This document shows, one piece after another, positions 25,070-52,566 of a stretch of 64,000 nt of DNA (positions within the stretch are counted from its first letter, which is position 1; each line of letters opens with the position of its first letter). The stretch lies in the NCBI RefSeq assembly GCF_045037415.1, contig NZ_CP173439.1; one strand, 5' to 3'. The notes beneath the pieces are model-generated. The model was given only the letters and a program-made list of their open reading frames with translations, made no database searches and had not been told where the DNA came from. This stretch comes from Escherichia coli (GTDB lineage Bacteria; Pseudomonadota; Gammaproteobacteria; Enterobacterales; Enterobacteriaceae). Position numbers and translations under genes: made by a program.

Positions 25070-25350
25070 CTGTTCTCCAATGACTAGTCTAAAAACTAGT
25101 ATTAAGACTATCACTTAAATAAGTGATATTGGTTGTCTGGAGATTCAGGGGGCCAGTCTAAATTCCGTATTGCTGGTTCTTTATCGGTAGAAAAATCAAT
25201 ATCCATAGCATCGGTCGCAGGCGCTGATACATTGCAGAGCGACCGGGTATTAGAGTCGCTATTCACTGGTTATCACTGAACGCTGCGTGATCAGGGTTGC
25301 ATTAATAAAATGATATGTTATAACATACCAATATTAACATATATTTTCGC

Positions 25351-27321: not shown

Positions 27322-27327
27322 CAAATC

Positions 27328-28119
27328 ATGATGAAAAATACAGGTTATATCTTAGCTCTTTGTCTGACAGCATCGGGGCATGTCCTGGCCCACGATGTCT
27401 GGATTACAGGTAAACAGGCAGAGAACAACATTACCGCAGAGATTGGTTATGGTCATAATTTCCCCTCAAAGGGCACAATTCCTGACAGAAGGAATTTCTT
27501 TGAAAATCCCCGGATTTATAACGGGAAAGAGACAATAACACTGAAGCCAGCGTCCACGGATTATGTCTATAAAACTGAGTCTGCAAGCAAAGATAATGGC
27601 TACGTTTTGTCAACATATATGAAACCGGGATACTGGTCGAGAACCTCTTCAGGATGGAAACCGGTCAGCCGGGAGGGCAGAAATGATGTGGCTTACTGTG
27701 AGTTTGTCACTAAATATGCGAAATCTTTTATTCCTGGTGAACAGCAGATGCCAGCACAACTCTATCAGTCTCCAACGGGGCATGAGCTTGAAATCATTCC
27801 GTTATCCGATATAAGTCGTTTCAGTGAAGATGTGAAGCTGAAAGTCCTGTATAAAACGTCCCCGCTCGCCGGAGCTATCATGGAGCTTGACTCGGTCAGT
27901 TATCTGAAATCATCCCGTCATACTCATGCAGTTGAGCACAAACATCCTGTTCATAAAGCAGAACTCACCTTTGTAACTAATGAGGATGGTATCGTCACAG
28001 TACCTTCTCTTCATATTGGACAGTGGCTGGCGAAAGTCCAAAATAAGAAAAGTTTTCAGGACAAAAGCCTGTGTGATGAAACTGTCGATGTGGCAACTTT
28101 AAGTTTCTCCCGAAATTAA
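27328..28119 (+). CDS. periplasmic protein co-encoded with the receptor (possibly DUF4198-like)
   Basis: 263 aa with signal peptide, start 6 bp after the receptor stop; family assignment from memory only. Confidence 0.45.
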   Translation: MMKNTGYILALCLTASGHVLAHDVWITGKQAENNITAEIGYGHNFPSKGTIPDRRNFFENPRIYNGKETITLKPASTDYVYKTESASKDNGYVLSTYMKPGYWSRTSSGWKPVSREGRNDVAYCEFVTKYAKSFIPGEQQMPAQLYQSPTGHELEIIPLSDISRFSEDVKLKVLYKTSPLAGAIMELDSVSYLKSSRHTHAVEHKHPVHKAELTFVTNEDGIVTVPSLHIGQWLAKVQNKKSFQDKSLCDETVDVATLSFSRN

Positions 28120-30878: not shown

Positions 30879-32000
30879 GTTGATGTCCTTTCTGGTGTGA
30901 GAACCTTAAGGAAACAACATGTTGGGTGGAGCGGACAATCCAAATGGTGAATTACCGTCTTATATCACTGGCGCTGACAAACAGGGATATTGCGACAATT
31001 CACAGCAATATCGTGCAGGAATACAACACCCTTAAAGGGTATAGCTGGAAATGGCTGGGTGGGGTGTCAGTGGCTTTTCTGGTTATGTTCTGTGTGCTCG
31101 GATGGGGAATGAAAACAATACTCGACAGGAACTACAACGCCACAGCGGCGGTGTATCAGAAAGTTGTGACACTGGAAGATAAACTGGTGGAGAAACCTGT
31201 CACGGGGAAGAGCCGGAAAAACTGACGCGCTTCGCTTGTCCAACGCCTCACGACCCGCGAAAGAATTTCGCGAACCGTTCACTGTTTTTTTCAATATGAT
31301 TCTGTCTGCTTTGGTCGATAAAGCAGACGATAGTATTCCAGCCTTCGTATATATAACGGTACGTGCTCATCAGTAAGAGCTGGCGGTATTGTGTTATCAG
31401 GGGGAAGTTTTTTCAGATACTCACGAAATGCCTGGCTTGATGCCATAAAATCTACAGCTGCATCGATAATATGTGGGATATTTTCATCTAATTTTGTCAT
31501 GATGATTGATCTGATATTATCACGGTTCGTGAATTATAGTATGTCACTATTATTTATGCTTTAGTGAACCAGAAAAAATCCCCCGTTGGTATAGGGGGAT
31601 ATGTAAGGAGAAATAACTTCGCAGGTGTTCTTGTTTGTATTATAACGTGAAAAGAATGCACGCAACTTAATTAATCTGCCGTACTTCCTTTCAGTTTTCA
31701 AGATAAGGTTTATAATAAAACATGGAATGGAAGCAAGCTTTAAGGTTTCAGCTCTAAAATTTTTAATATCTATTAACTAGCTAGTTGTTGTCCTTGTGAG
31801 CATGTTGTATATAAAAGCTAGGATAATATCCTGACCGGAGTATTCATATTCCTTATCCCCTCTGTGTTCTCAGAGGTTTTTTTCTGTATTTAATGATATG
31901 AGCTGGAATGCGATTCCGGCCCCCCCCGTTTACATAATTCTCCCTGACATACGGCACCGGAATCGCATTGATTTTGCATTGCTAATGTCTAACTGTGCTG

Positions 32001-32038
32001 GTGAATGTTGGGGGCAGTTTGGATATCGAAAATTATTG
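32001..32038. repeat. 38-bp Tn3-family-like terminal repeat copy (GGGGCAGTTTGGATATCGAAAATTATTGTACGTTAAGG)
   Basis: Starts GGGG, ends ...GTTAAG like Tn3-family IRs; related copies at 42145 and 56465. Confidence 0.45.
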
Positions 32039-32042
32039 TACG

Positions 32043-32389
32043 TTAAGGTTGTTTTTTGACCTTGTCGGGGTCCGCCTGCGGGCAGTAGAGATCATATAAG
32101 GTATTCAATAACGTCATGATGCGGTTATCCCCGATACGGTAATATACCATTTTACCTGCCCGTCGGGTTCGACCAGCTTCAGGCGACGCATGACACCCAA
32201 CTGCTGAGACAGGGTCGGCTGAGTGATACCGACCGCCGCTTCCAGCTCGGTCACATTCGCTTCCCCCTGGCTTAACTGACACATCAACAATAGCCGGTCG
32301 CTGTTGGCCAGTCCCCGTAGGACATCTGCTGCCCCCAGGGCTGCATTTTTCATATCAGTCTGACGTTTTGTGTCTTCATTCATGGGCAT
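32043..32389 (-). pseudogene. ArsR/SmtB-family regulator (BigR/YgaV-like), apparent frameshift
   Basis: HTH region (NVTELEAAVGITQPTLSQQLGVMRRLKLVE) in one frame and the expected wing (GKMVYYRIGDNRI...LYDLYCP) in an overlapping frame; break near a G-run around 32160..32200. Confidence 0.55.
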
Positions 32390-32510
32390 TGCTGGTTTCT
32401 TATATTATGTATTTTTATATAATATTGTTCAGTATAATGATAGTGGCGTAATTTTGCCACCGTGATCTTCAGGTCTGCAGCGTCCAGCTGGACCGGGTAA
32501 CTAATTATAT

Positions 32511-34208
32511 ATGGCAGATATTTTGCCCCGAGTGAACAGAGAGGATGTAATGAAAATAGTGATTGTTGGTGGTGTTGCCGGGGGAGCATCCGCTGCAGCC
32601 AGGGCTCGTCGGTTATCAGAGGATGTCAGTATTGTTGTGTTTGAGCGGGGAAGCGATGTCTCTTTCGCCAACTGTGGATTGCCTTATCATATAGGCGGAA
32701 AAATTCCGTTACGGCAGTCGCTGATTCTGAAAACCCCGGAGGATTTTAAATCCCGTTTTAACATAGACGTCCGTATCCGTCATGAAGTGATGTCAGTAGA
32801 CCCGGTTAATAAGATGGTGACGGTTAAAAATCTGACCTCCGGGGAGGTCTATACCGAAGAATGGGATCGTCTGCTCCTCAGTACCGGTGCCGCTCCGGTT
32901 GTTCCCCCCTTGCCCGGACTACAGGAAGCGGGTGTCTTTACACTGCGAAATCTTACTGACATGGATGCTATCCAGGCGTGGATTGAGCAACATAATATCG
33001 CTCACACCACGCTTGTCGGGGGGGGATTTATCGGGCTCGAAGTGATGGAGGCACTGAGCGAAAGGGGGATCAGTGTGACCCTGCTGGAGATGGGGGAACA
33101 GGTTATGGCTCCGGTTGATCCTGAAATGGCATCGGCCCTGCATCAGGAAATCAGGAGTCATGGCGTGGATCTGCGTCTCAGAACGGCGCTCACCGAGGTA
33201 CTGCGGACAGAGACGGGATTCCGCGTTGCACTGTCTGACGGTGGGTTTCTGCAGACCGACATGGTTATTCTCGCCATCGGGGTAAAACCTGAGAGCAGCC
33301 TTGCCACAGGAGCCGGGCTCGCCGTGGGTAAACGGGGAGGCATAAGTGTCAATGCCTGTATGCAGACAAGTATCCCTGACATCTATGCCGTGGGGGATGC
33401 AGTTGAAACACCTGACCTTGTCTTTCAGGAACCCGCTAATGTTCCTCTGGCAGGGCCAGCCAACCGCCAGGGACGCATTGCTGCTGATAATATGCTCGAT
33501 CGTCACAGCCTTTACCATGGCAGTCAGGGGACATCCATTTGTAAGGTATTTTCGCTGAGTATTGGCAGTGTCGGGGCGAATGAAAAGCAGCTGAAAGCCC
33601 ATGGTACCCGATACGAGAAGGTTTACGTCCATGCCGCTGATCATGCCAGTTACTACCCGGGGGCAACAATGATCAGTCTGAAACTGCTGTTCAGCCCCGA
33701 TACCGGTAAAATTCTCGGGGCCCAGGCGTCAGGGAAAAAAGGGGTTGATAAACGCATCGATGTCCTGGCTGTCGTACAGCGCGCGGGGCTTACCGTTAAC
33801 GATCTCGAGCATCTGGAGCTGACCTATGCTCCGCCTTTCAACAGTGCAAGGGACGTCGTTAACCAGGCTGGAATGGTGGCGGCAAATGTTATCAAGGGTG
33901 ATACGGTCATCTGTCATGTCCGCGATGTGTTACAACGGGAACCGGGCAGTTATTGTTTACTTGATATTCGTTCTCCTGCAGAACTGAAACAATTTGGTGA
34001 ATATCCTGACGCGCTATCCATCCCTCTTGATTCCCTGCGGGAGAATCTTGATAAGTTGCCTGAAGATAAAGAGATTATTATCGGGTGTCAGAGTGGTCTG
34101 CGGGGGCATGTGGCATACCGTATGCTTCAGTCTCACGGCTTCCGGACATATAATCTGAGTGGTGGTTTTATAACTTGGCAGGCGGTTACGGAATCAATGA
34201 GTCAATAA
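32511..34208 (+). CDS. CoA-disulfide/persulfide reductase with C-terminal rhodanese domain
   Basis: 565 aa; FAD-binding GGVAGG start, pyridine-nucleotide disulfide oxidoreductase core with redox Cys (SFANCGLPY), C-terminal rhodanese with active-site Cys (IIIGCQSGLRG). Confidence 0.85.
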   Translation: MADILPRVNREDVMKIVIVGGVAGGASAAARARRLSEDVSIVVFERGSDVSFANCGLPYHIGGKIPLRQSLILKTPEDFKSRFNIDVRIRHEVMSVDPVNKMVTVKNLTSGEVYTEEWDRLLLSTGAAPVVPPLPGLQEAGVFTLRNLTDMDAIQAWIEQHNIAHTTLVGGGFIGLEVMEALSERGISVTLLEMGEQVMAPVDPEMASALHQEIRSHGVDLRLRTALTEVLRTETGFRVALSDGGFLQTDMVILAIGVKPESSLATGAGLAVGKRGGISVNACMQTSIPDIYAVGDAVETPDLVFQEPANVPLAGPANRQGRIAADNMLDRHSLYHGSQGTSICKVFSLSIGSVGANEKQLKAHGTRYEKVYVHAADHASYYPGATMISLKLLFSPDTGKILGAQASGKKGVDKRIDVLAVVQRAGLTVNDLEHLELTYAPPFNSARDVVNQAGMVAANVIKGDTVICHVRDVLQREPGSYCLLDIRSPAELKQFGEYPDALSIPLDSLRENLDKLPEDKEIIIGCQSGLRGHVAYRMLQSHGFRTYNLSGGFITWQAVTESMSQ

Positions 34209-35571: not shown

Positions 35572-36138
35572 GTGAACGGTCATGCTCACCTGCTCTACGC
35601 GCTCAATATCGCCGTGAGAACCGCGCCGGACAGCTCGGTTAAGGCGCTGAAATACGCCGCTGCGATTGAACGTTCGCTGTGTGAGAAACTTTGTGCTGAT
35701 GTGAACTACAGCGGACTGATTTGTAAAAATCCGTTCCACCTGGAATGGCAGGTGATGGAGTGGCGAGAGGAAGCCTATACCCTCGATGAACTGGCTGATT
35801 ATCTCGATTTGAGCGCCTCAGCGCGCCGTAGCATCGATAAACATTACGGGATGGGGCGAAACTGCCACCTGTTCGAAATGACGCGCAAATGGGCTTACAG
35901 GGCGATTCGTCAGGGCTGGCCCGAATTCTCACAGTGGCTTGATGCCGTGATTCAGCGTGTCGAAATGTACAACGCATCGCTTTCCGTTCCGCTTTCACCG
36001 CCTGAATGTCGGGCTATTGGCAAGAGCATTGCGAAATACACGCACAGGAACTTCACGCCGGAAACTTTCGCACAGTATGTGGCTGATACGCACACATTAA
36101 CGTACGTTTTCGTTCCATTGGCCCTCACCCCCCGATAA
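35572..36138 (+). CDS. ColE2-type replicase / PriCT-domain Rep protein, probably 5'-truncated or frameshifted
   Basis: Conserved sequence continues ~45 codons upstream of the annotated start (..FWLVFDVDREGAAIDWSDRNAPAPNITVKNPVNGHAHLLYAL..) with no start codon and stops just beyond; C-terminal PriCT-like region (ECRAIGKSIAKYTHRNFTPETF). Confidence 0.5.
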   Translation: MNGHAHLLYALNIAVRTAPDSSVKALKYAAAIERSLCEKLCADVNYSGLICKNPFHLEWQVMEWREEAYTLDELADYLDLSASARRSIDKHYGMGRNCHLFEMTRKWAYRAIRQGWPEFSQWLDAVIQRVEMYNASLSVPLSPPECRAIGKSIAKYTHRNFTPETFAQYVADTHTLTYVFVPLALTPR

Positions 36139-36377
36139 CGACCCAGGTAGCGCGCCGTATTCCCCCCGCCGGCCGTTTTCTTCGACATGTACATCAGGCG
36201 CGGAACTCATCGGGGCGCGGGAATGAAATCCCATTCAGACTCCGGATAGATTCAAGCAAGCCCACTTATCGTCAAAATCGGTGTTGCAAAAACGGGAGTG
36301 ACCATAGATCCGTTTTCCAAGCGGACCCCATAATATCGGCTGGTAAACATCACTCGCTAGTGCATTCTTTTTGTTGG

Positions 36378-36394
36378 TAATGATAATCATTTAC
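36378..36394 (+). promoter_or_regulatory. Fur box upstream of the ChaN-like/TonB/receptor cluster
   Basis: taATGATAATCATTtac contains a 13-bp perfect match to the Fur-box core AATGATAATCATT. Confidence 0.5.
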
Positions 36395-36470
36395 ATTCAT
36401 TCTTTGATGTTTTATCATAATTAATGTTTTGTCAATAAATATATGGAAACATATTGTTTCAGATGGGAAT

Positions 36471-37346
36471 ATGAGAAAGTTCATCCTTATTTCTATGATA
36501 ACGTTAGCTAGTGTTAGTCTGGGAGCCTGCAGACAGAATGTCACCATAAAGCAGGATGCGCCAGGGCAGAAAGCTTTCCTGACTGACGGGCAGATTTACG
36601 ATTTGCACAGTGGCAAAATTATTTCTAGCAGCGAGCTTTTGGCGGATCTTGCTACCGCTCAACATCTTATTATTGGTGAAAAACACGATAATGCCGAGCA
36701 TCATCAGATTGAGCTTTGGCTTATTCAAAATTTGCTCATCCAGCGACCACAGGGGAGTGTGTTGCTTGAGATGTTGACGTCAGAGCAACAGCCCCGAGTT
36801 AACCAAGTTAAATGTTGGCTGAAAGATAATCCTGTGGTTCGAGATAGCCGTGTTCAGGAACTACTTAACTGGCAAAAAGGGTGGTCCTGGGAGATGTATG
36901 GCGACATCGTCATGCAGCTATTACGTGGGCCTTACCCGCTGCTCAATGCCAACATTGGCCGGGAGCAGATATTGGCACTGTACAAAAAAAACGAATTTCC
37001 TAAAGGAAAAAAATCCACTGCACCTGTGGTACAAGAAGCTCTGCGTGAAACCATCATATCTATGCATGAAGGCAACCTTGAAAGCCAGCAACTGACGTCA
37101 ATGCTCTCTATTCAGCAGCAGCGGGATCGCTACATGGCCCGCCAGCTTCTGAGTGCCCCGGTACCGTCGTTGTTGATTGCAGGTGGTTATCACGCGTCAA
37201 AAAGCATGGGCGTACCGTTACACATGGAAGATCTTGCCACCGGCACCCATCCAGTGGTGTTGATGCTTGCAGAAAAAGGAATGAACATCACAGTAGATCA
37301 TGCTGACTACGTGTGGTTTGTAGCGCCAGATACAACAAAAAGGTAA
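36471..37346 (+). CDS. ChaN-like lipoprotein (Tiki/haem-binding-uptake family)
   Basis: Lipoprotein signal with lipobox LGAC; motif GEKHDNAEHH typical of the ChaN family as recalled; start taken at the internal Met of ORF 36429..37346. Confidence 0.55.
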   Translation: MRKFILISMITLASVSLGACRQNVTIKQDAPGQKAFLTDGQIYDLHSGKIISSSELLADLATAQHLIIGEKHDNAEHHQIELWLIQNLLIQRPQGSVLLEMLTSEQQPRVNQVKCWLKDNPVVRDSRVQELLNWQKGWSWEMYGDIVMQLLRGPYPLLNANIGREQILALYKKNEFPKGKKSTAPVVQEALRETIISMHEGNLESQQLTSMLSIQQQRDRYMARQLLSAPVPSLLIAGGYHASKSMGVPLHMEDLATGTHPVVLMLAEKGMNITVDHADYVWFVAPDTTKR

Positions 37347-37353
37347 ACCATGG

Positions 37354-38130
37354 ATGATGAATATTCTCCACTTCTCACAGTCGGTAAAATGGAGCAGCTG
37401 GTTTATCTGTTCTCTACTGCTTCATGGACTGATTTTCCTTGCGTTTATCTGGCGTTTTTCCGAAGTTCAGCCCGCTATGTCTCCTGCACCGGCGATCATG
37501 CTGCAATGGGCAGAAATTATAGAGGCTCCTTCTTCTCCACTTTCGCTTCCGGTGGGAATCGCTCAACAGGAGTCCGCAGTGACAGAAGAAAAGCAACAAA
37601 CTGAGGACAGACAACAACGTCCTGTCACTGAAGACAGTGATGCAACCATTGAAATAACTAGGAAGAAAAAGTCATCCGATGGAGAAAAGAAAAAGACACG
37701 TCCACCTCGTAAGATAAAGGCTCAAACCAGCGACAGCAACCCCACAGCCGTTTCCAGTAATGCTGCACCTCAGGCTCTGGTCGAATCGTCCCGTATTGCT
37801 GCGCCTTTTAACAGTGACTCAACAAAGCGAGATAATTCTGAGGCATCTTGGGAAAGCAGAGTAAAAGGCCACCTAAACCGTTATAAACGTTACCCTGGCG
37901 ATGCCAGAAAACGTGCACGAACCGGCACAGCCGTCGTGACTTTTACCGTAAACACGGAAGGCACTATTGTCAGTAGTTTCTTGGAAATCTCTTCAGGAAC
38001 CTTTTCTCTTGACCGCGAAGCTATTGCTGTTTTAGAACGCGCTCAACCACTTCCCAAACCACCGCCTGAAATATTGGAGGGAGGATTATTTAAAGTAAAA
38101 ATGCCGATTACCTTTAAGTTGAAGGAGTAA
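37354..38130 (+). CDS. tonB: TonB-family energy transducer
   Basis: N-terminal membrane anchor, Pro/Lys/Glu-rich spacer, C-terminal TonB domain (YPGDARKRARTGTAVVTFTVNTEGTIVSSFLEISSGTFSLDREAIAVL). Confidence 0.8.
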   Translation: MMNILHFSQSVKWSSWFICSLLLHGLIFLAFIWRFSEVQPAMSPAPAIMLQWAEIIEAPSSPLSLPVGIAQQESAVTEEKQQTEDRQQRPVTEDSDATIEITRKKKSSDGEKKKTRPPRKIKAQTSDSNPTAVSSNAAPQALVESSRIAAPFNSDSTKRDNSEASWESRVKGHLNRYKRYPGDARKRARTGTAVVTFTVNTEGTIVSSFLEISSGTFSLDREAIAVLERAQPLPKPPPEILEGGLFKVKMPITFKLKE

Positions 38131-38298
38131 AGGGATAATTGGCCGTTCAAGTTCATTTAACTGAAATTTAATTTTCATTTTTATGCTGAACATTTTATCA
38201 AACTTTTCCACTGTCAAAAAAATCAAAAAGACAGTAGAACATAATTAATAAACAAATAGTTATACTTATCTTTATTAATATTATACCCAAGGAAATTT

Positions 38299-40560
38299 AT
38301 GAACGTTATAAAACTGGCTATCGGCTCAGGCATATTATTGCTCAGCTGCGGTGCTTACTCACAATCCATCAGTGAAAAAACTAATTCCGACAAAAAAGGA
38401 GCGGCAGAATTCAGTCCGCTCAGCGTTTCTGTCGGGAAGACGACCAGTGAGCAGGAAGCTCTCGAGAAAACAGGCGCGACCAGTTCCCGGACAACGGACA
38501 AAAACCTGCAATCACTTGACGCAACAGTGCGTAGTATGCCTGGTACTTATACTCAAATAGATCCTGGTCAGGGAGCAATCAGTGTGAATATTCGAGGCAT
38601 GAGCGGATTTGGTCGTGTAAACACTATGGTCGATGGTATTACCCAGAGTTTTTACGGAACCTCTACCTCCGGAACAACGACGCATGGTTCAACTAACAAT
38701 ATGGCTGGCGTACTTATAGATCCTAACTTACTGGTAGCAGTTGATGTTACACGCGGTGACAGCAGTGGCTCTGAAGGGATCAACGCCCTTGCCGGTAGTG
38801 CAAATATGCGTACTATTGGCGTTGACGATGTAATATTTAACGGTAATACATATGGCCTTCGTTCACGTTTCTCTGTCGGTAGTAATGGGCTGGGACGCAG
38901 CGGAATGATCGCCCTTGGTGGAAAAAGCGACGCTTTTACGGATACGGGAAGCATTGGCGTTATGGCTGCTGTGAGCGGCAGTTCTGTGTACTCTAATTTC
39001 TCAAATGGTTCTGGAATTAACAGCAAAGAGTTTGGTTATGATAAATATATGAAGCAGAACCCCAAATCCCAACTGTATAAAATGGATATCAGACCAGACG
39101 AATTTAACAGCTTCGAACTTTCCGCTCGAACCTATGAAAATAAATTTACACGTCGTGATATAACCAGTGACGACTATTACATTAAATATCATTACACCCC
39201 TTTTTCTGAATTAATTGACTTTAACGTAACGGCCAGTACCAGTCGCGGTAATCAAAAGTATCGTGATGGCTCGCTGTATACTTTCTACAAAACCTCAGCG
39301 CAAAATCGTTCTGACGCGCTGGATATCAACAATACCAGCCGGTTCACTGTCGCGGACAATGACCTGGAGTTTATGCTGGGCAGCAAACTGATGCGTACCC
39401 GCTATGACCGGACCATTCACTCAGCGGCGGGCGACCCGAAAGCGAATCAGGAATCGATCGAGAACAATCCGTTCGCACCCTCCGGCCAGCAGGATATTTC
39501 AGCGCTGTATACCGGGCTGAAGGTTACGCGCGGCATCTGGGAGGCAGATTTCAATCTCAACTACACACGTAACAGGATCACAGGGTACAAGCCCGCCTGC
39601 GATTCACGCGTTATCTGCGTGCCACAGGGTAGCTACGATATTGACGATAAAGAGGGTGGCTTCAACCCTTCAGTTCAGCTTTCTGCTCAGGTAACACCAT
39701 GGCTTCAGCCGTTCATTGGCTACAGCAAATCCATGCGCGCCCCGAACATCCAGGAGATGTTCTTCTCTAATTCAGGAGGCGCATCCATGAACCCATTCCT
39801 GAAGCCTGAACGTGCAGAAACCTGGCAGGCGGGTTTTAACATTGATACCAGAGATTTACTGGTCGAACAGGATGCCCTGCGCTTTAAGGCTCTGGCGTAC
39901 CGCAGCAGGATCCAGAACTACATCTACAGCGAGTCTTATCTGGTTTGTTCTGGAGGTCGTAAATGCAGTCTGCCTGAGGTGATTGGCAATGGCTGGGAGG
40001 GCATTAGCGATGAATACAGCGACAATATGTACATCTACGTTAACTCGGCAAGCGACGTTATCGCAAAGGGCTTCGAACTGGAGATGGATTATGATGCAGG
40101 TTTTGCTTTTGGTCGACTCTCTTTCAGCCAGCAGCAAACAGACCAGCCAACCTCCATCGCCAGCACCCACTTTGGCGCAGGGGATATAACCGAACTGCCC
40201 AGAAAATACATGACGCTGGATACTGGTGTTCGCTTCTTCGATAACGCGTTGACCCTGGGCACTATCATAAAATACACAGGCAAGGCTCGTCGCCTGTCGC
40301 CTGATTTTGAGCAGGACGAACATACCGGCGCAATAATCAAACAGGATTTGCCGCAGATCCCAACGATTATCGATCTCTATGGTACTTACGAGTACAACCG
40401 CAACCTGACACTGAAACTTTCGGTACAAAACCTGATGAACAGAGATTATTCGGAGGCGCTGAATAAGCTCAACATGATGCCAGGTCTTGGTGACGAAACC
40501 CACCCAGCCAATTCCGCGCGTGGCAGAACATGGATATTTGGCGGGGATATTCGTTTCTGA
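38299..40560 (+). CDS. TonB-dependent outer-membrane receptor (YncD-like)
   Basis: 753 aa; signal peptide, plug then beta-barrel, C-terminal ...WIFGGDIRF. Confidence 0.85.
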   Translation: MNVIKLAIGSGILLLSCGAYSQSISEKTNSDKKGAAEFSPLSVSVGKTTSEQEALEKTGATSSRTTDKNLQSLDATVRSMPGTYTQIDPGQGAISVNIRGMSGFGRVNTMVDGITQSFYGTSTSGTTTHGSTNNMAGVLIDPNLLVAVDVTRGDSSGSEGINALAGSANMRTIGVDDVIFNGNTYGLRSRFSVGSNGLGRSGMIALGGKSDAFTDTGSIGVMAAVSGSSVYSNFSNGSGINSKEFGYDKYMKQNPKSQLYKMDIRPDEFNSFELSARTYENKFTRRDITSDDYYIKYHYTPFSELIDFNVTASTSRGNQKYRDGSLYTFYKTSAQNRSDALDINNTSRFTVADNDLEFMLGSKLMRTRYDRTIHSAAGDPKANQESIENNPFAPSGQQDISALYTGLKVTRGIWEADFNLNYTRNRITGYKPACDSRVICVPQGSYDIDDKEGGFNPSVQLSAQVTPWLQPFIGYSKSMRAPNIQEMFFSNSGGASMNPFLKPERAETWQAGFNIDTRDLLVEQDALRFKALAYRSRIQNYIYSESYLVCSGGRKCSLPEVIGNGWEGISDEYSDNMYIYVNSASDVIAKGFELEMDYDAGFAFGRLSFSQQQTDQPTSIASTHFGAGDITELPRKYMTLDTGVRFFDNALTLGTIIKYTGKARRLSPDFEQDEHTGAIIKQDLPQIPTIIDLYGTYEYNRNLTLKLSVQNLMNRDYSEALNKLNMMPGLGDETHPANSARGRTWIFGGDIRF

Positions 40561-40628
40561 TGACAATTTCCGCTAGGTTCAGACAATACGTTTTCTCTCT
40601 TATGTCAATTTTATTGCAGGAACGAAAA

Positions 40629-41804
40629 ATGAATATTTTCACTTTATCCAAAGCACCGCTATACCTGTTAATTTCACTATTTTTACCCACGATGGCCATG
40701 GCTATCGATCCACCTGAACGCGAACTTTCGCGATTTGCCCTGAAAACGAATTACCTTCAGTCCCCTGATGAAGGCGTCTATGAACTGGCGTTTGATAATG
40801 CCAGTAAAAAGGTGTTTGCAGCAGTCACCGATCGTGTAAATCGTGAAGCCAATAAAGGCTATCTGTATTCGTTTAATTCAGATTCGCTGAAAGTCGAAAA
40901 TAAATACACGATGCCATACCGGGCATTTTCGCTGGCGATAAATCAGGATAAACATCAGCTCTATATCGGACACACCCAGTCAGCGTCCCTGCGTATCAGT
41001 ATGTTTGACACCCCAACCGGCAAACTGGTAAGAACCAGCGACAGGTTAAGTTTTAAAGCGGCAAACGCTGCAGATTCGCGTTTTGAGCATTTTCGCCATA
41101 TGGTTTACAGCCAGGATTCCGATACCCTGTTTGTGAGTTATAGCAATATGCTGAAAACGGCCGAGGGCATGAAGCCTCTGCATAAGCTGTTAATGCTCGA
41201 CGGGACGACGCTTGCCTTAAAAGGCGAGGTTAAGGATGCTTACAAAGGTACAGCGTATGGTCTGACGATGGATGAAAAAACACAGAAAATCTACGTTGGC
41301 GGAAGAGATTACATCAACGAAATTGATGCGAAAAATCAGACGCTGCTGCGTACCATCCCGTTGAAAGATCCGAGACCACAAATCACAAGTGTGCAGAATC
41401 TGGCGGTGGACTCCGCTTCTGACCGTGCCTTTGTGGTGGTATTCGACCATGACGATCGTTCCGGTACAAAAGATGGACTCTATATTTTTGACTTACGCGA
41501 CGGTAAACAGCTTGGCTATGTGCACACAGGAGCCGGAGCTAACGCGGTGAAATACAATCCGAAATATAACGAACTGTATGTCACCAACTTCACTAGCGGC
41601 ACCATCAGCGTAGTGGATGCCACCAAATACAGCATCACCCGTGAATTTAACATGCCGGTCTACCCAAACCAGATGGTGTTGTCGGACGATATGGATACCC
41701 TTTACATTGGCATCAAAGAAGGCTTTAACCGCGATTGGGATCCTGATGTGTTTGTGGAAGGAGCTAAAGAACGTATTCTGAGCATTGATTTGAAAAAGTC
41801 GTGA
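40629..41804 (+). CDS. periplasmic beta-propeller protein (YncE-like)
   Basis: Signal peptide from internal Met (MNIFTLSKAPLYLLISLFLPTMAMA); repeated YV/beta-propeller blades (LYIGHTQS, IYVGG, LYVTNFTSGTISVVD); E. coli yncE likewise sits beside yncD. Confidence 0.65.
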   Translation: MNIFTLSKAPLYLLISLFLPTMAMAIDPPERELSRFALKTNYLQSPDEGVYELAFDNASKKVFAAVTDRVNREANKGYLYSFNSDSLKVENKYTMPYRAFSLAINQDKHQLYIGHTQSASLRISMFDTPTGKLVRTSDRLSFKAANAADSRFEHFRHMVYSQDSDTLFVSYSNMLKTAEGMKPLHKLLMLDGTTLALKGEVKDAYKGTAYGLTMDEKTQKIYVGGRDYINEIDAKNQTLLRTIPLKDPRPQITSVQNLAVDSASDRAFVVVFDHDDRSGTKDGLYIFDLRDGKQLGYVHTGAGANAVKYNPKYNELYVTNFTSGTISVVDATKYSITREFNMPVYPNQMVLSDDMDTLYIGIKEGFNRDWDPDVFVEGAKERILSIDLKKS

Positions 41805-42067
41805 TCGGGGGGAAAAAACATGGGATAAAAACTCCGTTATTCCACTAAACTGGCCGGACTAGGAAAAGCAAACATCTCTGTCCTGCCGGTACGCCTGTTA
41901 CGCCGCTCCATGAGGCTGAGGAATCTCCAGAAAACGAGACAGGCACAGCATTGTACGATCAACTGATTTGTGCCAATAATTAAATGAAATCACAGCTATG
42001 CCTGTTCATGGGGTTCTAGGCCGGAACCCCAGATTTTTCCGATTGTTTGTTTTCTAACTGATTATTC

Positions 42068-42326: not shown

Positions 42327-42593
42327 TCAGGCCGGCATATACCTCAGCAGACTGATATCCCGCGCGTTTTTCTTCAGCCCTGATACATTCAGCCCCGCAA
42401 TGGCCCGGCGGTATACCATCCGGCCGCCGCACAGCACGCATTCGAACGGGTCACGACTCAGGAACTGTTTCACCATTTGTGCATAGCACACTTTCGCCAC
42501 TGCTTCCGGTTTATCCATCCCCAGAGCACGGTACACCTGCGGCAGCTTCTCTCCACACACCCGGTTGGCAAGGAACCCGAAGTACCTCACCAT
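42327..42593 (-). pseudogene. IS91-family transposase, C-terminal fragment
   Basis: 88 aa (MVRYFGFLANR...FECVLCGGRMV...) parallels the C-terminus of the IS91 TnpA at 16638..17870; no N-terminal part. Confidence 0.6.
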
Positions 42594-42657
42594 CTTAAAA
42601 AACTGAACCGCCCCGGGAATCCTGGAGACTAAACTTCCTGAGAAAGAGGTAAACAGG

Positions 42658-42984
42658 ATGACTAAAAATACTCGTTTTTCCCCCGAAGTCCGTCAACGGG
42701 CAGTCCGTATGGTTCTGGAAAGTCAGGGCGAATATGACTCACAATGGGCGACAATTTGTTCCATTGCCCCAAAGATTGGCTGTACACCGGAGACTCTGCG
42801 TGTCTGGGTACGCCAGCATGAGCGGGATACCGGAGGCGGTGATGGCGGGCTCACCACCGCTGAACGTCAGCGTCTGAAAGAGCTGGAACGTGAAAATCGT
42901 GAACTGCGCCGCAGTAACGATATCCTTCGCCAGGCTTCCGCTTATTTTGCGAAGGCGGAGTTCGACCGCCTCTGGAAAAAGTGA
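42658..42984 (+). CDS. IS629-like OrfA
   Basis: 108 aa, HTH plus leucine-zipper region. Confidence 0.85.
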
Positions 42985-43872
42985 TGCCACTGCTGGATAA
43001 GCTGCGTAAGCTGTACGGGGTCGGACCGGTATGCAGTGAACTACATATTGCCCCGTCAACGTATTACCACTGTCAGCAACAGCGACATCATCCTGATAAA
43101 CGCAGTGCCCGTGCGCAGCGCGATGACTGGCTGAAGAAAGAGATACTGCGCGTATACGATGGGAATCATCAGGTATACGGTGTGCGTAAAGTCTGGCGTC
43201 AGTTGTTACGGGAAGGAATCAGGGTAGCCAGATGTACAGTGGCGCGCCTCATGGCGGTTATGGGACTTGCCGGTGTTCTCCGGGGTAAAAAGGTCCGCAC
43301 TACCGTCAGCCGGAAAGCCGTTGCCGCAGGCGACCGCGTAAACCGTCAGTTTGTGGCAGAACGTCCTGACCAGTTGTGGGTGGCTGATTTTACTTACGTC
43401 AGCACATGGCAGGGGGTCGTCTATGTGGCGTTCATCATTGATGTGTTTGCCGGATACATCGTGGGGTGGCGGGTTCTCATCGTCCATGGAAACGACATTC
43501 GTGCTGGATGCACTGGAGCAGGCGTTATGGGCCCGTCGACCGTCCGGCACGGTCCATCACAGTGATAAAGGTTCTCAGTATGTATCGCTGGCCTACACAC
43601 AGCGGCTTAAGGAAGCCGGATTACTGGCATCAACAGGAAGTACAGGCGACTCGTATGACAACGCGATGGCGGAGAACATCAATGGTCTTTACAAAGCGGA
43701 GGTAATACACCGTAAGAGCTGGAAAAACCGTGCAGAAGTGGAACTGGCCACACTCACGTGGGTGGACTGGTATAACAATCGACGATTGCTGGAAAGGCTG
43801 GGCCATACTCCTCCGGCAGAAGCAGAAAAAGCTTATTATGCTTCCATCGGAAACGATGATCTGGCAGCCTGA
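42981..43872 (+). pseudogene. IS629-like OrfB (DDE transposase) with an internal frameshift
   Basis: Two overlapping ORFs (42981..43565 and 43351..43872) each carry part of the OrfB sequence; frame switch near 43480. Confidence 0.7.
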
Positions 43873-45671: not shown

Positions 45672-46306
45672 CTAAAGGCGTCTTTGGCTTCGGTCAGCGA
45701 ACACTGCTGTTTTTCTTTGCAGGACGGTGAATCTTTGTAGTCCGTCATCTGCGCCAGCAGCTGATAGCTGTTGTCAAGCTGCATCTGGCTGCGCTCTTTT
45801 TCCATCGCCTGCACCGCTTTCTGGCTAAACGCCGCAGAGTCATCGGTGATCACCGGATTAAACGTTGGGTCCATCGTGCCCATTTTTTCCTGATGATGTA
45901 CCGGAATGTCGCACCCAGGGAAAGCGCCGGTGATAAAGAATTGTGCCGTCGCAACGGTGCGTTGCAGACTGTTGGCATAGGTATATACCGTGTCCGGCGT
46001 CGGGCATTCGCCTGACGTGACCATCCCCAGCTCCGCCAGCCATTCTCGCATGTAGTGGCCCATATAAATTTCCAGCACACCGCCTTTCGTGGTGAGCTGC
46101 CCGCCGGGCACATCCCACTCCGGCCACTGATTCGGCGTGGACTGCTCCAGCACGCTGCCATTATTGGCCAACGGCGCGCGCAAGTTGTGTCGGCTCATCA
46201 TCAACACTTGTTGCAGTTGATAACCTTCCGGCGTTGTCTGCGCTTGCGCGGCGGACGACAATAAAACAGCCCCTGCCACAGCGGCGGCGAGTATCAATTT
46301 TTTCAT
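45672..46306 (-). pseudogene. agp: glucose-1-phosphatase/histidine acid phosphatase (Agp-like), 3'-truncated by IS5
   Basis: Signal peptide plus RHNLRAP (RHGxRxP) motif; close to E. coli Agp over ~210 aa, then enters IS5. Confidence 0.7.
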
Positions 46307-46427
46307 CCCTACAACCTCTTGTTGTTATCAATCCTCATAGAGTGTGACAGAAATATGACATTTTTCCGGGAACGGTTTCGCAAAACGGGAGATTCCAGAA
46401 GATAACCGGCAGGTCAGCGTGTTCCGG

Positions 46428-46913
46428 TTACTCCGAGATAAAAACCTCATACTTAATATTGCGGGCGCAATAAAAAGTGCCGTCCGTCAGATACAGTTCA
46501 CGAAATCGCGTGTTATCAGAGATGTTGTCCAGCAGGGAACGTTCCGTATCGACAAATTCTTTTTGCACGCGGTAATGAACGGCGTTCTCCGTTTCAAAAG
46601 AGACATATTCCGTGGTGGCGTAGGGCTTATTTTTTGATTTCACGTACACGATATATTGCACGGTACTGGCCGTCAGCCCCGTTTTCGCCGCGATCTCTTT
46701 GAGACTCAACGTCTCAGAGGCATAAAGCGCCTGAACCTGCGCTATGCGTCGGTGATTATACGCCGTCACCCGAAGGCTCAGTTTCAGCCGATAGGCCATA
46801 TTCCGCACGGCGGTAATATTAGTGTGAAGCAGTTGCGCTATCTGCTCTGTCGTGAGGATGCCCGCGTTTTCCCGCAGAATCGCAAGGCTTTCGTCGTTCC
46901 AGATAAATGCCAT
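46428..46913 (-). CDS. hypothetical protein (possible HTH-containing)
   Basis: 161-aa ORF immediately downstream of the thioredoxin-like gene; no recognisable motif. Confidence 0.4.
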   Translation of the reverse strand: MAFIWNDESLAILRENAGILTTEQIAQLLHTNITAVRNMAYRLKLSLRVTAYNHRRIAQVQALYASETLSLKEIAAKTGLTASTVQYIVYVKSKNKPYATTEYVSFETENAVHYRVQKEFVDTERSLLDNISDNTRFRELYLTDGTFYCARNIKYEVFISE

Positions 46914-46937
46914 TGGGTATCTCTCCGTACGCGTCGT

Positions 46938-47423
46938 TCATCGCGCCGCCAGGCGCGCAAACGTGGCCTCTAACTCAGGCGGCTTACGCATACCCTGGTG
47001 TAGCTCCAGAACGCGTCCTTCGGAGTCAATCAGTACGGAGGTCGGCGTGCCGATCACCTGATAACGTTCCTGGGTAATGTTGAGCTGATCGCGCACCACC
47101 GGATAGGTTATCTGATGTTTTGCCAGCAGATCGTTGATCCTGACCGTTTCAGGGTCGGTATTGACCGCCACAACCACCACTTTATCGCCCCATTTTTTGC
47201 TCAGCGCTTCCAGCGTGTCCATTTCCGCCAGGCACCCCCCGCATCCCGCAGACCAAAAATTCAGGTACACCGCCTTTCCTTGCCAGCGTTCAAGGCCTGA
47301 CTCCTGGCCTTGCAGATCAAACGCCGCCAGCGCCGGGGCCGGTGCCCCGACCGCCAGCTTTTCTTCTTTACACCCGCTTATCAGGATCGCCGCCGCGAGT
47401 AACAGCACATTATGCCAGCGCAT
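46938..47423 (-). CDS. thioredoxin-like thiol:disulfide oxidoreductase (TlpA/ResA-like)
   Basis: Signal/anchor then WSAGCGGC CxxC motif; last gene of the fetMP-associated ABC operon. Confidence 0.7.
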   Translation of the reverse strand: MRWHNVLLLAAAILISGCKEEKLAVGAPAPALAAFDLQGQESGLERWQGKAVYLNFWSAGCGGCLAEMDTLEALSKKWGDKVVVVAVNTDPETVRINDLLAKHQITYPVVRDQLNITQERYQVIGTPTSVLIDSEGRVLELHQGMRKPPELEATFARLAAR

Positions 47424-48105
47424 GTTGATTGGCCTCCTCACCCAGATATTTACCGTGTTGCAGCCGCAGAATACGGTCGGCAAACTGCCCAAGCGCAGGG
47501 TTGTGCGTCACCATCACAATCGTGCGCCCCTGACGATGCAGATCGGTGAGCAGATCCAGCACCCGCTGCTCATTCTCTTCATCCAGGTTGCCCGTCGGTT
47601 CATCCGCGAAAATAACCGGCGGTTCGTTGACCAGCGCCCGGGCGATACACACACGCTGCTGCTCACCACCGGAAAGCTGGCTCGGCAGGTGCGTCACACG
47701 ATGCCCAAGCCCTACCTGTTCCAGCACCTTCCTCGCCGCCGCTTCATCCACCACGCTGTGGTAATGCTGGGCGAGCATGATGTTTTCCAGCGCAGTTAAG
47801 AACGGGATCAAATGGAACTGCTGAAATACCAGGCCGATTTTCTCGGCGCGAAAGCGACGGCGCCCCTCTTCATCCAGCGCGGCGGCATCGGTGCCATCAA
47901 GAAACACCTGCCCTTCCGTCGCCGTATCAAGGCACGTCAGAATATTCATCAGCGTGGTTTTACCAGAACCAGAAGCGCCCATAATGGCGACAAATTCACC
48001 CTGCGCAATGCGCAGATTAATGTCATCCAGGGCGGTAACGTCACCGAACCGTTTGTATAAGTGGCGGGTTTCGATCGCCACCTGAGGGATATGCGTAACG
48101 GACAT
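47410..48105 (-). CDS. ABC transporter ATP-binding protein (LolD/MacB-type)
   Basis: Walker [10 protein letters not shown], signature LSGGEQQR, Walker [12 protein letters not shown]. Confidence 0.85.
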
Positions 48106-48109
48106 GGCG

Positions 48110-49240
48110 CTACTCTCCTTTCAGCACTTTAGCAGGCTCGACGCTTACCGCGCGTCGCACCGGAACAATCGCCGCCAGAATGGCGACCAGTAAAGACAAC
48201 ACCAGAGTAATGGGCAACACCGGCAGACGCAGTGAAATGGCGGCATTAAACACCGTTAATCCCAACAGTTGCGCCAGCAAATATCCCAGCACCCAGCCGC
48301 ACGCCACCGCCGCCAGCGCGATGATGCTGGTTTCCAGCAGAATTTGCCGCACGATATCGCCGTTGCTGGAACCAAGCGCTTTTTGCAGCGCAAACTCGTG
48401 CGCCCGCTCGCCGACAATCGCCATCAGCGTGGTATTCACGCACAGCGAAGAGAGCGCCAGAATCACGATCGAGACCAGTCCCATCAGACCTTTAATTTTA
48501 TCCAGCACCTGCCCTTCGGAAGCAGAGACCTTACGCACCGGACGAATCTCCTGGTCAGGATACTGCGCCTGCAACCGGCTGGCATAGTTCTCCACCTGGC
48601 CGACATCGTTACTGACGCTCAGCAAGCCGTGGCTGATTTTGCCCGGCTGATGCAGCCAGGCCTGCGCCACGTCGAGGCTGACGATCAGCATGTTGTCCGT
48701 CGCATCGCCAGACTCCACAATGCCTTTAATCTGCAAATTCTTACGCTGATTGTGATCCACCAGCGTGATGCTGTCGCCCGGCTGCACGTTGAGGCGTTCC
48801 GCCAGTTTGACGCCGATCATCGCATTACGGTCGTCAAAACTGACGCCAATCCAGCTACCGGTGACCTGCCAGTACGGCACCAGTTTTTGCAGCGACTCGA
48901 ACCACACGCCAACCATCACCACTTTTTCCAGCTCGGTACGCGCCATGCCGTACAACCACGGACTGGCGCCATGCACCAGCCCCTGCGGCGCCTGATCGAG
49001 AATGCTCTGCAACTCCTGCTGCGGCATACTGGAACCGTGCCCCGGCCCGATGTAAAAATTCGCGCCGAAGGTGCGCAGTTCTTCGCTCATTTTGGTGTTA
49101 ATGTCGAACCAGACGGCAGAAAGCGCCGTCACGATGGTCGCCCCCACCATCAGCGCGGCAAACACCACGCTGACCCGCTGAAAACGCAGACGCAGCGCCC
49201 GCCACACCAGCAGCCAGAGCATGGTACGTTTAGCGGCCAT
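48110..49240 (-). CDS. ABC transporter permease, FtsX-like
   Basis: N-terminal TM, large periplasmic domain, C-terminal multi-TM bundle; start estimated at an internal Met. Confidence 0.7.
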   Translation of the reverse strand: MAAKRTMLWLLVWRALRLRFQRVSVVFAALMVGATIVTALSAVWFDINTKMSEELRTFGANFYIGPGHGSSMPQQELQSILDQAPQGLVHGASPWLYGMARTELEKVVMVGVWFESLQKLVPYWQVTGSWIGVSFDDRNAMIGVKLAERLNVQPGDSITLVDHNQRKNLQIKGIVESGDATDNMLIVSLDVAQAWLHQPGKISHGLLSVSNDVGQVENYASRLQAQYPDQEIRPVRKVSASEGQVLDKIKGLMGLVSIVILALSSLCVNTTLMAIVGERAHEFALQKALGSSNGDIVRQILLETSIIALAAVACGWVLGYLLAQLLGLTVFNAAISLRLPVLPITLVLSLLVAILAAIVPVRRAVSVEPAKVLKGE

Positions 49241-50513
49241 ACAGCACCTCCACAGGATACAGCCGGGCAATCCGCCGGGCCGGGAACCAGGTGCCGATCA
49301 ACGCAATCAGTACCGCAATCACCAGTACGCACGGCACCACAATCCAGGCAAAATTAAGCGGCGCGTCGAAGAGCATGACGCCAATCGCTTTCGCCAGCCC
49401 CCACCCGGCAATACATCCCAGCGCACCGCCAGCCAGCCCGCTGGACGCCGCTTCCAGGTAGAACAGCAGCATAATTTGCCACTGTCGCGCACCCAGCGCT
49501 TTCATCAAACCGATCTCTTTGGCGCGTTCCATAATGGTGCTGGTCATCAGCGAGGCGATCCCCATTGCGGAAGCCACCAGCGCCGCGACGGTAACGACCG
49601 CCATCAGCAACTGAATTTTATCGATCACCACCCCTTCGGACGCCGCGACCTGCCATACCGGGCGCACTTCCGCACCGGAAATCGCCTCTTCCAGCTGATG
49701 CGCGATCGACGACACATAGGCCGTGCAATACCAGAGGTCGTACTCTTCGGCATTGAGCGCGTCCAGGTTTTCCCGCGCGCGGCGGGACAGTTCGTTTTCC
49801 GGCACCGTCAGCGCCGAGACGCGAATCGCCTGCACTTTTCCGGGGAGCCCCAGCAGGTGCTGTACCGTGCTTAGCGGCATCACCAGTTGGTTATCTTCAT
49901 CGCCGCCGCTGGAGAGGATACCGCTGACGGTGACCTGCACTGCTTCGCCTTCGGTACGTAATGTCAGCTTATCACCGGGTTTCCAGCCCATTTGCCGCGC
50001 CAGCGCGTGCCCGACTAAGGTCTGCGGCTCTGCGCCTGCGGGTTCCTGCGGCCAGTCGCCGGTCACCTGCCAGTATGGGCTGACCGTTTTCTGCCCCGTC
50101 TCATATCCCTCTTCATCAGGAATATCCACTGGCTGACTGAAGAAAGTGCCCAGAATCCGCACTGGTTCTCCCTCCACGCTGGCTTCGCCGCCGAGCATCG
50201 GCGCAAACCCGACAATGTTGTTTCGCCAGAAGATATCTTTGATGTTCGGCAGCTCGGCTTCATCAAGAAAATCCTGACCGGAAAGCGGATTACTGCTCTC
50301 ACTAAACAGCGCGGGCAGCGCAGCCTGTCCGGCGGGTTCAATCAAAATGTTCGCACCATAAGACTTCAGCTCTCTGGACATTTTGTCGCCGATATCAATG
50401 GACACCGCCAGCAGCGCCGAGATCAGGCTGGAGGCCAGAAAAACGGTGATTATCGCCAGCACTTTGCGGCGTAAATTGCGCCCCCAGGATTGTCGTAACA
50501 TCCGCCACAGCAT
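49230..50513 (-). CDS. ABC transporter permease, FtsX-like
   Basis: 427 aa, same architecture as its neighbour. Confidence 0.75.
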   Translation of the reverse strand: MLWRMLRQSWGRNLRRKVLAIITVFLASSLISALLAVSIDIGDKMSRELKSYGANILIEPAGQAALPALFSESSNPLSGQDFLDEAELPNIKDIFWRNNIVGFAPMLGGEASVEGEPVRILGTFFSQPVDIPDEEGYETGQKTVSPYWQVTGDWPQEPAGAEPQTLVGHALARQMGWKPGDKLTLRTEGEAVQVTVSGILSSGGDEDNQLVMPLSTVQHLLGLPGKVQAIRVSALTVPENELSRRARENLDALNAEEYDLWYCTAYVSSIAHQLEEAISGAEVRPVWQVAASEGVVIDKIQLLMAVVTVAALVASAMGIASLMTSTIMERAKEIGLMKALGARQWQIMLLFYLEAASSGLAGGALGCIAGWGLAKAIGVMLFDAPLNFAWIVVPCVLVIAVLIALIGTWFPARRIARLYPVEVLYGR

Positions 50514-50515
50514 GA

Positions 50516-51895: not shown

Positions 51896-51998
51896 AACTT
51901 CGACTCTGTACGGCGGGTTGAATTAAGCGACGGGCATATGATCGGTCTGACCAACGCGCCAGAAGGGGGAATCCTCCTGGCGCGTTGGTTAGTCGGTT

Positions 51999-52529: not shown

Positions 52530-52566
52530 ACGTATCCTCTCGTCTAAAACAACGGCTATACAACGA

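Follow-up and report, generated by a model that had tools for sequence, protein, structure and literature searches.

A four-gene cluster in a 64,000-nucleotide stretch of Escherichia coli DNA (contig NZ_CP173439.1 of assembly GCF_045037415.1; hereafter the window) is, on the basis of 99.9 to 100% sequence identity, the known cjrABC-senB operon, borne by virulence plasmids, namely pUTI89-type IncF plasmids in extraintestinal E. coli and the invasion plasmid of Shigella and enteroinvasive E. coli (EIEC). We read this operon as an iron-repressed import module, in which an outer membrane receptor and its TonB protein would take up an iron-bearing ligand that is then handled in the periplasm by CjrA and SenB, and we give this reading a probability of about 0.8. 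In a megablast search of window positions 36300-41900 (5,601 bases) against the PLSDB plasmids, 576 plasmids matched, 569 of them at 99% identity or more, and 20 of the records were from Shigella. Nucleotide identity over the 5.6 kb was 100% with pVR50 and 99.9% with pUTI89. The stretch was also found in 531 of 5,426 complete E. coli genomes, and 554 of its 556 places there were on plasmids, in agreement with the plasmid location proposed by an earlier sequence-only reading of the window. That reading had not recognized the cluster as a named and studied operon, and its finding is a rediscovery of a known locus. The pUTI89 genes are annotated as a ChaN family lipoprotein, an energy transducer TonB, a TonB-dependent receptor, and senB/TieB, and the genes of both RS218 and pUTI89 bear the name cjrABC-senB (PMC7412671, PMC4155114). 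The cjrABC operon known from EIEC and Shigella is GenBank AF283288, as cited in PMC6668396. Gene order and the upstream Fur box are the same as in pUTI89, pRS218, and pVR50, with no difference of substance. Because of this near-identity, the published iron repression and the CjrB/ExbBD-dependent reception of colicins Js and Z apply to the present operon.

All four genes were found as open reading frames (ORFs) on the plus strand behind a Fur box, as the sequence-only reading had described. The cjrA gene (36471-37346, 291 amino acids [aa]) encodes a lipobox, L-G-A-C, and is followed by cjrB (37354-38130, 258 aa), cjrC (38299-40560, 753 aa), and senB, also named tieB (40629-41804, 391 aa), whose product has a signal peptide (...AMA/IDPP). 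The intergenic gaps are 7 bp between cjrA and cjrB, 168 bp between cjrB and cjrC (38131-38298), and 68 bp between cjrC and senB. The start at 40629 is backed by homologues of SenB that begin with the same methionine and by an AGGAA upstream; a longer senB frame from 40530 would overlap cjrC. The Fur box is the 19-mer GGTAATGATAATCATTTAC on the plus strand at 36376-36394, which agrees with the consensus GATAATGATAATCATTATC at 16 of 19 positions and ends 77 bp before the cjrA ATG. The 13-mer core AATGATAATCATT named earlier is present exactly within the box at 36379-36391, although its start had been placed one base off. At up to one mismatch, the core occurs at 5 sites in the window against 0.19 expected, and none of 100 shuffles gave 5. 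A score of at least 15/19 against the Fur consensus was reached in just 4 of 246 nonoverlapping 260-bp segments of the sequence. The best sigma-70 promoter-like site of the region, a consensus match only, lies on the plus strand at 36390-36418 (TTTACA, 17 nt, TATCAT; 10/12 matches), and its -35 hexamer overlaps the Fur box. A consensus scan also gave a plus-strand hairpin resembling an intrinsic terminator at 42009-42031, 205 bp past senB, with a 9-bp stem followed by a T run.

The iron regulation expected from the box agrees with published work on the operon, in which a functional Fur box, repression by iron, and induction by dipyridyl were reported (PMC7412671). The cjrB and cjrC genes are necessary and sufficient for sensitivity to colicin Z; tonB and tol mutants are still sensitive to it, and exbB and exbD mutants are resistant (PMC6668396). 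Colicins Js and Z carry no TonB box and use CjrC as their receptor, via CjrB and the host ExbB/ExbD (PMC6668396). A mutation in the cjr region of pUTI89 led to less bladder invasion and fewer intracellular communities, as relayed in PMC4155114. As these studies by others have shown, Fur represses the operon at plentiful iron and chelation induces it, and the outer-membrane receptor CjrC is energized by CjrB, working with the host ExbB-ExbD motor, and not by the chromosomal TonB. In the mechanism that we propose, the normal role would be to bring a ligand that bears iron into the periplasm, where membrane-anchored CjrA and periplasmic SenB may bind or process the ligand. Neither exbB/exbD nor an inner-membrane transporter gene was found in the cluster, and because the module lacks such a transporter, the later steps would proceed via general transporters. 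The description of the system as self-contained was therefore not sustained, colicin uptake likewise needing the host ExbB/ExbD. The title of a 2001 study of Shigella and EIEC cjr by Smajs and Weinstock reportedly also names temperature regulation, which is said to act through VirB; we know of no VirB on the plasmids of extraintestinal pathogenic E. coli (ExPEC). The heptamer ATGAAAT, which we take to fit the VirB-binding motif RWG(G)AAAT, is present at 36223-36229, upstream of the Fur box by about 150 bp, and a 7-mer is easily a chance match.

CjrB is a TonB paralogue, scoring 68.5 bits against TIGR01352 (cutoff, 27.1), which bears out the dedicated TonB of the sequence-only reading. Its transmembrane segment contains S-x3-H (SLLLH), the motif that couples TonB to ExbBD. 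CjrC has the make-up of a TonB-dependent receptor, with a plug domain (PF07715) and a barrel domain (PF00593), as assigned by Pfam to an identical protein, and with alignments to solved receptors. Its closest solved chains were 9oaa_T (E = 6.4e-83; 143 bits in the plug and 130 bits in the C-terminal barrel) and then HasR (about 1e-28), ShuA, TbpA, and PhuR. Chain 9oaa_T contains the peptide QQDKSSG, which corresponds to the reverse complement of a TdfH quantitative PCR primer printed in PMC3814407. In addition, the Serratia homologues of CjrC are named "Probable TonB-dependent receptor NMB1497," and NMB1497 is TdfH/CbpA, the calprotectin-binding receptor of Neisseria (PMC3814407). From the seven-residue primer match and the NMB1497 naming, 9oaa_T is most likely the Neisseria TdfH calprotectin receptor; a search for PDB code 9OAA gave no relevant paper in the searchable literature. 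Judged by its solved relatives, CjrC groups with protein-binding receptors, the probable TdfH chain first and then HasR and TbpA. Two cysteine pairs, C434/C440 and C550/C556, are invariant or nearly so across 12 homologues; they are probably bridged as disulfides within loops and may indicate the side of the receptor that binds the ligand. CjrC also has a conserved segment near its N terminus, FSPLxVS. The receptor had been called YncD-like, and this part of the sequence-only reading fails. The best BLASTP segment between CjrC and E. coli YncD/PqqU scored 25 bits (E = 0.012), the PqqU model (NF041535) was absent among the NCBIfam matches of CjrC, and YncD was absent from its solved-structure matches (E ≤ 0.001), so the two receptors are unrelated beyond the generic fold.

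The apparent standing of TdfH/CbpA as the closest solved relative of CjrC raises an alternative, in which the module would pirate zinc or another metal from host proteins, as TdfH/CbpA does with calprotectin. The strong match to the chain that holds the TdfH primer peptide and the name carried by the Serratia homologues both point in this direction. However, TdfH is Zur-regulated and unresponsive to iron (PMC3814407), whereas cjr has a Fur box and is iron-repressed, and Fur-like boxes are conserved across the receptor family. TdfH is also longer, at 901 aa against 753 for CjrC, which is about 150 residues shorter than 9oaa_T and aligns well with it in the plug and the C-terminal barrel. To our knowledge, TdfH uses the general TonB and has no ChaN, TonB, or propeller partners. 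A search for a Zur box upstream of cjrA gave no site, and this, together with the Fur control, makes zinc piracy highly improbable.

CjrA proved to be a ChaN-family lipoprotein, as the sequence-only reading had proposed. In addition to the lipobox, it matched PF04187 with an E value of 4.6e-34 over model positions 1-212 of 213, and Campylobacter ChaN (2g5g) with an E value of 2.4e-31 over 245 residues. Pfam places PF04187, which is named "Haem-binding uptake," in the TIKI superfamily. Across CjrA, nine homologues, and ChaN, no variation was seen at G69-E70-x-H72, E100, or G238-x-Y240-H241. Active TIKI enzymes have a 2His/2Glu residue set (PMC6254334), and both GxxH motifs and the Glu residues of the enzymatically active proteins are kept in CjrA. 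The invariant positions may thus be structural equivalents of the TIKI catalytic residues, and they would suit a hydrolase as well as a haem binder. Tagged, overexpressed CjrA was recovered in the inner-membrane fraction, and its expression resulted in a leaky outer membrane and serum-sensitive cells (PMC7412671). In Campylobacter jejuni, chaN (Cj0177) lies directly upstream of the gene for the TonB-dependent receptor CtuA, a placement like that of the ChaN gene in cjr; the receptor there is linked with iron from lactoferrin/transferrin, and haem binding by ChaN has been seen in vitro. The Campylobacter genes are presumably adjoined by exbB1-exbD1-tonB1, and the order ChaN-ExbB-ExbD-TonB-receptor is seen in the Janthinobacterium relatives of CjrC; unlike both, the plasmid operon has no ExbBD. 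We know of no YncE-like or S9 gene in the Campylobacter chaN system.

One genome per species was scanned with an alignment of 12 CjrC homologues, and gene order was read at the resulting 80 loci from six-frame ORFs compared with reference proteins. The conserved core across the 80 species is ChaN-TonB-receptor, with ChaN present at 76 of the receptor loci, TonB at 76, an S9 peptidase at 56, ExbBD at 20, and a YncE-like protein at 9. The order ChaN-TonB-S9-receptor accounted for 48 loci (Cedecea, Serratia, Rahnella, Photorhabdus, Xenorhabdus, Providencia, and others), ChaN-ExbB-ExbD-TonB-receptor for 14 (Janthinobacterium, Massilia, and Pseudoduganella), and ChaN-TonB-receptor-YncE-like for 8 (Enterobacter, Klebsiella, Raoultella, and allies). 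Four loci had the order ChaN-ExbB-ExbD-TonB-S9-receptor (Chromobacterium, Iodobacter, Xenophilus, and one metagenome-assembled genome), and Hafnia paralvei had ExbB-ExbD-ChaN-TonB-S9-receptor. Five further loci were partial or odd, comprising S9-receptor (two), ExbB-ExbD-S9-receptor (one), the receptor only (one), and a YncE-like gene with ChaN on the opposite strand (one). The S9 peptidase and the YncE-like protein never occurred together (0/80), and 15 of the 80 loci had neither. The S9 gene lies between the tonB-like gene and the receptor gene, and its products keep the GxSxGG nucleophile motif in 56 of 56 cases and have a signal-like N terminus in 54 of 56. The Cedecea S9 peptidase is oligopeptidase-B-like, with 893 bits against a cutoff of 1313. 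Fur-like boxes scoring at least 15/19 were found upstream of the first gene at 43 of 76 loci (57%), compared with 0.2% of 1,028 control windows. All-against-all clustering of the 80 loci gave no further conserved family, and no inner-membrane transporter, haem oxygenase, binding protein, or haem ABC (ATP-binding cassette) transporter was among the conserved genes. An ABC importer resembling the ferric-iron system FbpABC, beside the Klebsiella aerogenes cluster, was considered and set aside, having no NCBIfam match above cutoff and no conservation at the other loci. The survey result is a lead, not a demonstration, and no paper linking oligopeptidase B with TonB-dependent uptake was found in the searchable library.

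The frequent protease suggests a mode of import like that of the Fus system, in which the receptor takes an iron-bearing polypeptide, a TonB paralogue engages the cargo, and a periplasmic factor frees the metal; this factor would be the S9 peptidase in the relatives and SenB and/or CjrA in the plasmid operon. The precedent is the Pectobacterium system (PMC7593965, PMC6042079), which consists of the receptor FusA, the TonB homologue FusB, which binds the ferredoxin cargo, and the periplasmic protease FusC. Fus shares with cjr a dedicated TonB paralogue and a receptor that passes a polypeptide across the outer membrane, and most relatives of CjrC have a periplasmic protease gene in the cluster; the likeness is one of description, not of sequence comparison. 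Fus differs in that it has no ChaN component and that its protease is of the M16 family, not S9. The position of the S9 gene in 56 of 80 species, its intact motif and signal-like N termini, the TIKI-type residues kept in CjrA, the predominance of protein binders (the probable TdfH, HasR, and TbpA) among the solved relatives of CjrC, and the dependence of colicins Js and Z, without a TonB box, on CjrB and not on TonB are all in line with such import. On the other hand, the protease was lost from the plasmid operon: no periplasmic protease is encoded in the window, and the spacer between cjrB and cjrC measures 168 bp. SenB does not resemble the S9 propeller and lacks a catalytic domain, the 15 loci with neither partner fit poorly, and there is no candidate for the cargo. 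Oligopeptidase B normally cuts short peptides only, which also weighs against this alternative. We regard Fus-like import as a tentative possibility.

A dedicated haem uptake system is a further candidate of similarly limited probability. In such a system, CjrC would import free haem or haem taken from haemoproteins, CjrA would bind it in the periplasm, and host transporters would move it inward. The matches of CjrA to PF04187 and to ChaN are in its favor, and the best NCBIfam match of CjrC was the haem/haemoglobin receptor model TIGR01785, with the haem receptors ShuA, PhuR, and HasR among the solved relatives. The H. influenzae protein Hup, which functions in haem utilization, is about 53% identical to TdfH (PMC3814407). 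However, CjrC scored 255.2 bits against TIGR01785, below the cutoff of 316.85, whereas the other TonB-dependent receptor of the plasmid, at 25351-27321, passed with 419.5 bits. A regular expression for the FRAP...NPNL signature of haem receptors gave no match in CjrC; it also missed this bona fide haem-family receptor of the plasmid and so carries no weight either way. Across the 80 species, the module is not accompanied by any conserved haem oxygenase, haem ABC transporter, or periplasmic protein that binds haem. Campylobacter chaN adjoins a receptor for lactoferrin/transferrin iron, not a haem receptor, and its role has been called unclear. The authors of the TdfH study also warn that haem annotation by similarity is wrong for TdfH (PMC3814407).

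SenB is, by alignment, a paralogue within the wider YncE family, a seven-bladed beta-propeller with a Sec signal, which supports the YncE-like propeller of the sequence-only reading. It matched the YncE structure (PDB 3vgz) with an E value of 2.7e-22 over residues 45-368 and E. coli YncE in BLASTP with 26% identity over 321 aa (E = 1e-27). Its score against the YncE equivalog model NF052280 was 158.2 bits, below the cutoff of 400, and it is not a YncE equivalog. The closest relatives of SenB, in Phytobacter (85%), Klebsiella aerogenes (73%), and Intestinirhabdus (68%), are encoded by the fourth gene of ChaN-TonB-receptor-propeller clusters. A metagenomic locus contained both a CjrC-like receptor (65%) and a SenB-like propeller (66%). 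No similarity was found between SenB and the propeller half of the S9 peptidases, and the two are therefore not homologous replacements of each other. A comparable pair is pqqU(yncD)-yncE of E. coli K-12, where a YncE-family propeller gene also lies beside the gene for a TonB-dependent transporter and the yncE promoter region contains a 15/19 Fur-like box. The K-12 pair differs in that the genes are divergent and the receptors are unrelated beyond the fold (25 bits). PqqU imports pyrroloquinoline quinone (PQQ), and YncE is dispensable for PQQ uptake. On a metagenomic contig (L015:5362-9369), a TonB-dependent receptor of 720 aa, unrelated to the others, is encoded two genes away from a distant homologue of SenB (46% identity), and the pairing of the YncE family with TonB-dependent receptors therefore recurs outside cjr and pqqU.

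The name of SenB suggests another role, that of an enterotoxin or a toxin-production factor encoded merely downstream of an unrelated uptake operon. This role follows database and literature naming ("enterotoxin production-related protein TieB"), and the pRS218 paper credits SenB with part of the enterotoxic activity of EIEC and Shigella (PMC4155114). In contrast, SenB carries a Sec signal and is a YncE-family propeller over its full length, and its homologues carry the NCBI name "YncE family protein." The gene holds the same fourth position in the chromosomes of Klebsiella aerogenes, Phytobacter, Raoultella, Enterobacter, Silvania, Pluralibacter, and Intestinirhabdus, and its operon position is conserved in nonpathogenic Enterobacteriaceae. 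The yncE gene of E. coli also adjoins a TonB-dependent transporter gene, with its Fur-like box. No paper pairing senB with YncE was found in the searchable library. An enterotoxin role for SenB is unlikely.

The plasmid operon is a derived mosaic of a Cedecea-type cjrABC, from which the protease gene was deleted, and a Klebsiella/Phytobacter-type senB. Among chromosomal loci, those closest to CjrC are all arranged as ChaN, TonB, S9 peptidase, and receptor; they were found on a Cedecea-like contig (88% identity), in Cedecea neteri (82%), on another contig (78%), in Serratia (57-68%), and in Yersinia nurmii (58%), and none of these loci contained a senB-like gene. CjrA, CjrB, and CjrC are 70, 70, and 88% identical, respectively, to the proteins of a Cedecea-type locus that has the S9 gene and no senB. 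The clusters of the closest SenB relatives show the opposite pattern, with their first three proteins just 36-51% identical to CjrA, CjrB, and CjrC; in Phytobacter, SenB is 85% identical, but the ChaN, TonB, and receptor proteins are 49, 37, and 51% identical. In blastn against the Cedecea davisae locus, window positions 36585-38115 aligned with locus positions 3158-4687 and window positions 38240-40566 with locus positions 6948-9274, and the 2.1-kb S9 gene of Cedecea davisae falls between the two blocks. The Phytobacter-type cluster showed high nucleotide similarity only from 40610 on. The two-block alignment and this similarity from 40610 together led us to the mosaic of two cluster types. 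Left over in the cjrB-cjrC spacer at 38179-38190 is a 12-nt relic, TTTTATGCTGAA, that matches sequence in the region where the S9 gene starts in three Cedecea-type loci (L018, L011, and L003), and a 12-nt match was found in 0 of 500 shuffles. The exchange of protease for propeller on the plasmid is one further independent event in addition to those seen at the surveyed loci. Upstream of the operon lies a truncated replicase-like ORF (35572-36138), and downstream lie a transposase fragment and an IS3-family element (42327-43872). Mobile-element debris on both flanks suits a mosaic island.

Several points weigh against the import of an iron-bearing ligand with handling by CjrA and SenB. No uptake of an iron source through CjrC has been demonstrated, and the authors of the 2020 study of the operon regard iron uptake by the cluster as still in need of confirmation (PMC7412671). 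The same study describes CjrA as a homologue of PhuW, which is said to be important for haem uptake, and Campylobacter ChaN binds haem; both favor the haem alternative. The +2 residue of CjrA is Arg, for which the classical sorting rule predicts the outer membrane, yet the protein was found in the inner-membrane fraction. The protease argument holds for the receptor family and not directly for the plasmid locus, which has no protease. Few independent lineages underlie the mutual exclusion of S9 and YncE-like genes, and the loci of the YncE type form essentially one clade of Enterobacteriaceae. The cargo had been called not evident from sequence, and the literature likewise names none (PMC7412671). 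Our preferred guess, which is tentative, is a peptide or small protein that bears iron or haem and not a classical siderophore, because the receptor relatives mostly bind proteins, a secreted S9 protease is the partner in most species, and colicins, polypeptide toxins without a TonB box, enter by way of CjrB and CjrC. Uptake of plain haem has a probability similar to that of polypeptide-borne iron. It is conceivable, though doubtful, that the receptor family of CjrC represents an undescribed protease-associated module induced by iron starvation, consisting of a ChaN/TIKI lipoprotein, TonB, a secreted oligopeptidase-B-like protease, and the receptor, for iron- or haem-bearing peptides or small proteins. 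The plasmid operon would then be a derivative that lost the protease and gained the propeller SenB, which was mislabelled as an enterotoxin.

Other features of the window were also recorded. A second exact AATGATAATCATT core, a Fur-like site, is present on the minus strand at 4463-4475, upstream of a cluster resembling those of lasso-peptide microcins (4454-8688). This cluster comprises a 62-aa candidate lasso precursor (4577-4765; …STNGTGGGSIIEGSYTVYRCDGGSVPSRPFGPPFCP), an Asn-synthetase-like cyclase (4785-6281), a B2 protease (6281-6964), and an ABC exporter (6964-8688). In PLSDB, 80% or more of the lasso-like stretch was present in just 23 plasmids. Another Fur-like box, ACAAATGATAATTATTATC (15/19; 54527-54545), lies about 80 bp upstream of a minus-strand gene set (approximately 46000-54545) that encodes an FTR1-family permease, an "iron transporter" protein, an Fe-S protein, ABC/FtsX permeases, an ATPase, and a TlpA-like thioredoxin. 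In the work on pRS218, the corresponding genes are called a high-affinity Fe2+ system (PMC4155114), and this FTR1-type set could provide the inner-membrane step for iron freed in the periplasm. The second TonB-dependent receptor gene, whose product exceeded the haem/haemoglobin family cutoff, is followed by a DUF4198 gene (region 25311-28119). About 25 bp before its start is a perfect palindrome, ATGTTATAACAT, which resembles a collapsed Zur box and misfits the spacing of the Zur consensus. At 32000-34208, a gene for a putative ArsR/SmtB-family regulator lies beside one for a putative 565-aa flavin adenine dinucleotide (FAD)-dependent oxidoreductase, and the pair may be a sulfide- or persulfide-stress module.

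Of the two F-plasmid lineages that dominate in ExPEC, one has cjrABC-senB as its marker cargo (PMC13108677), and roughly one complete E. coli genome in ten contains the operon. According to PMC7412671 and PMC4155114, the operon contributes to bladder infection and raises sensitivity to complement. The observation of the locus itself adds nothing new to the published record, and the comparative result is the addition. The operon was described some 25 years ago. Surveillance pipelines still list senB among the toxin genes, and there is probably no good basis for scoring it as an enterotoxin when virulence is typed from genomes. The mosaic and the protease pairing hint at a polypeptide-borne iron cargo and argue against SenB as an enterotoxin. 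The pairing with an S9 protease in most species and the swap for a YncE-like propeller in the plasmid are testable leads on both the cargo and the role of SenB.

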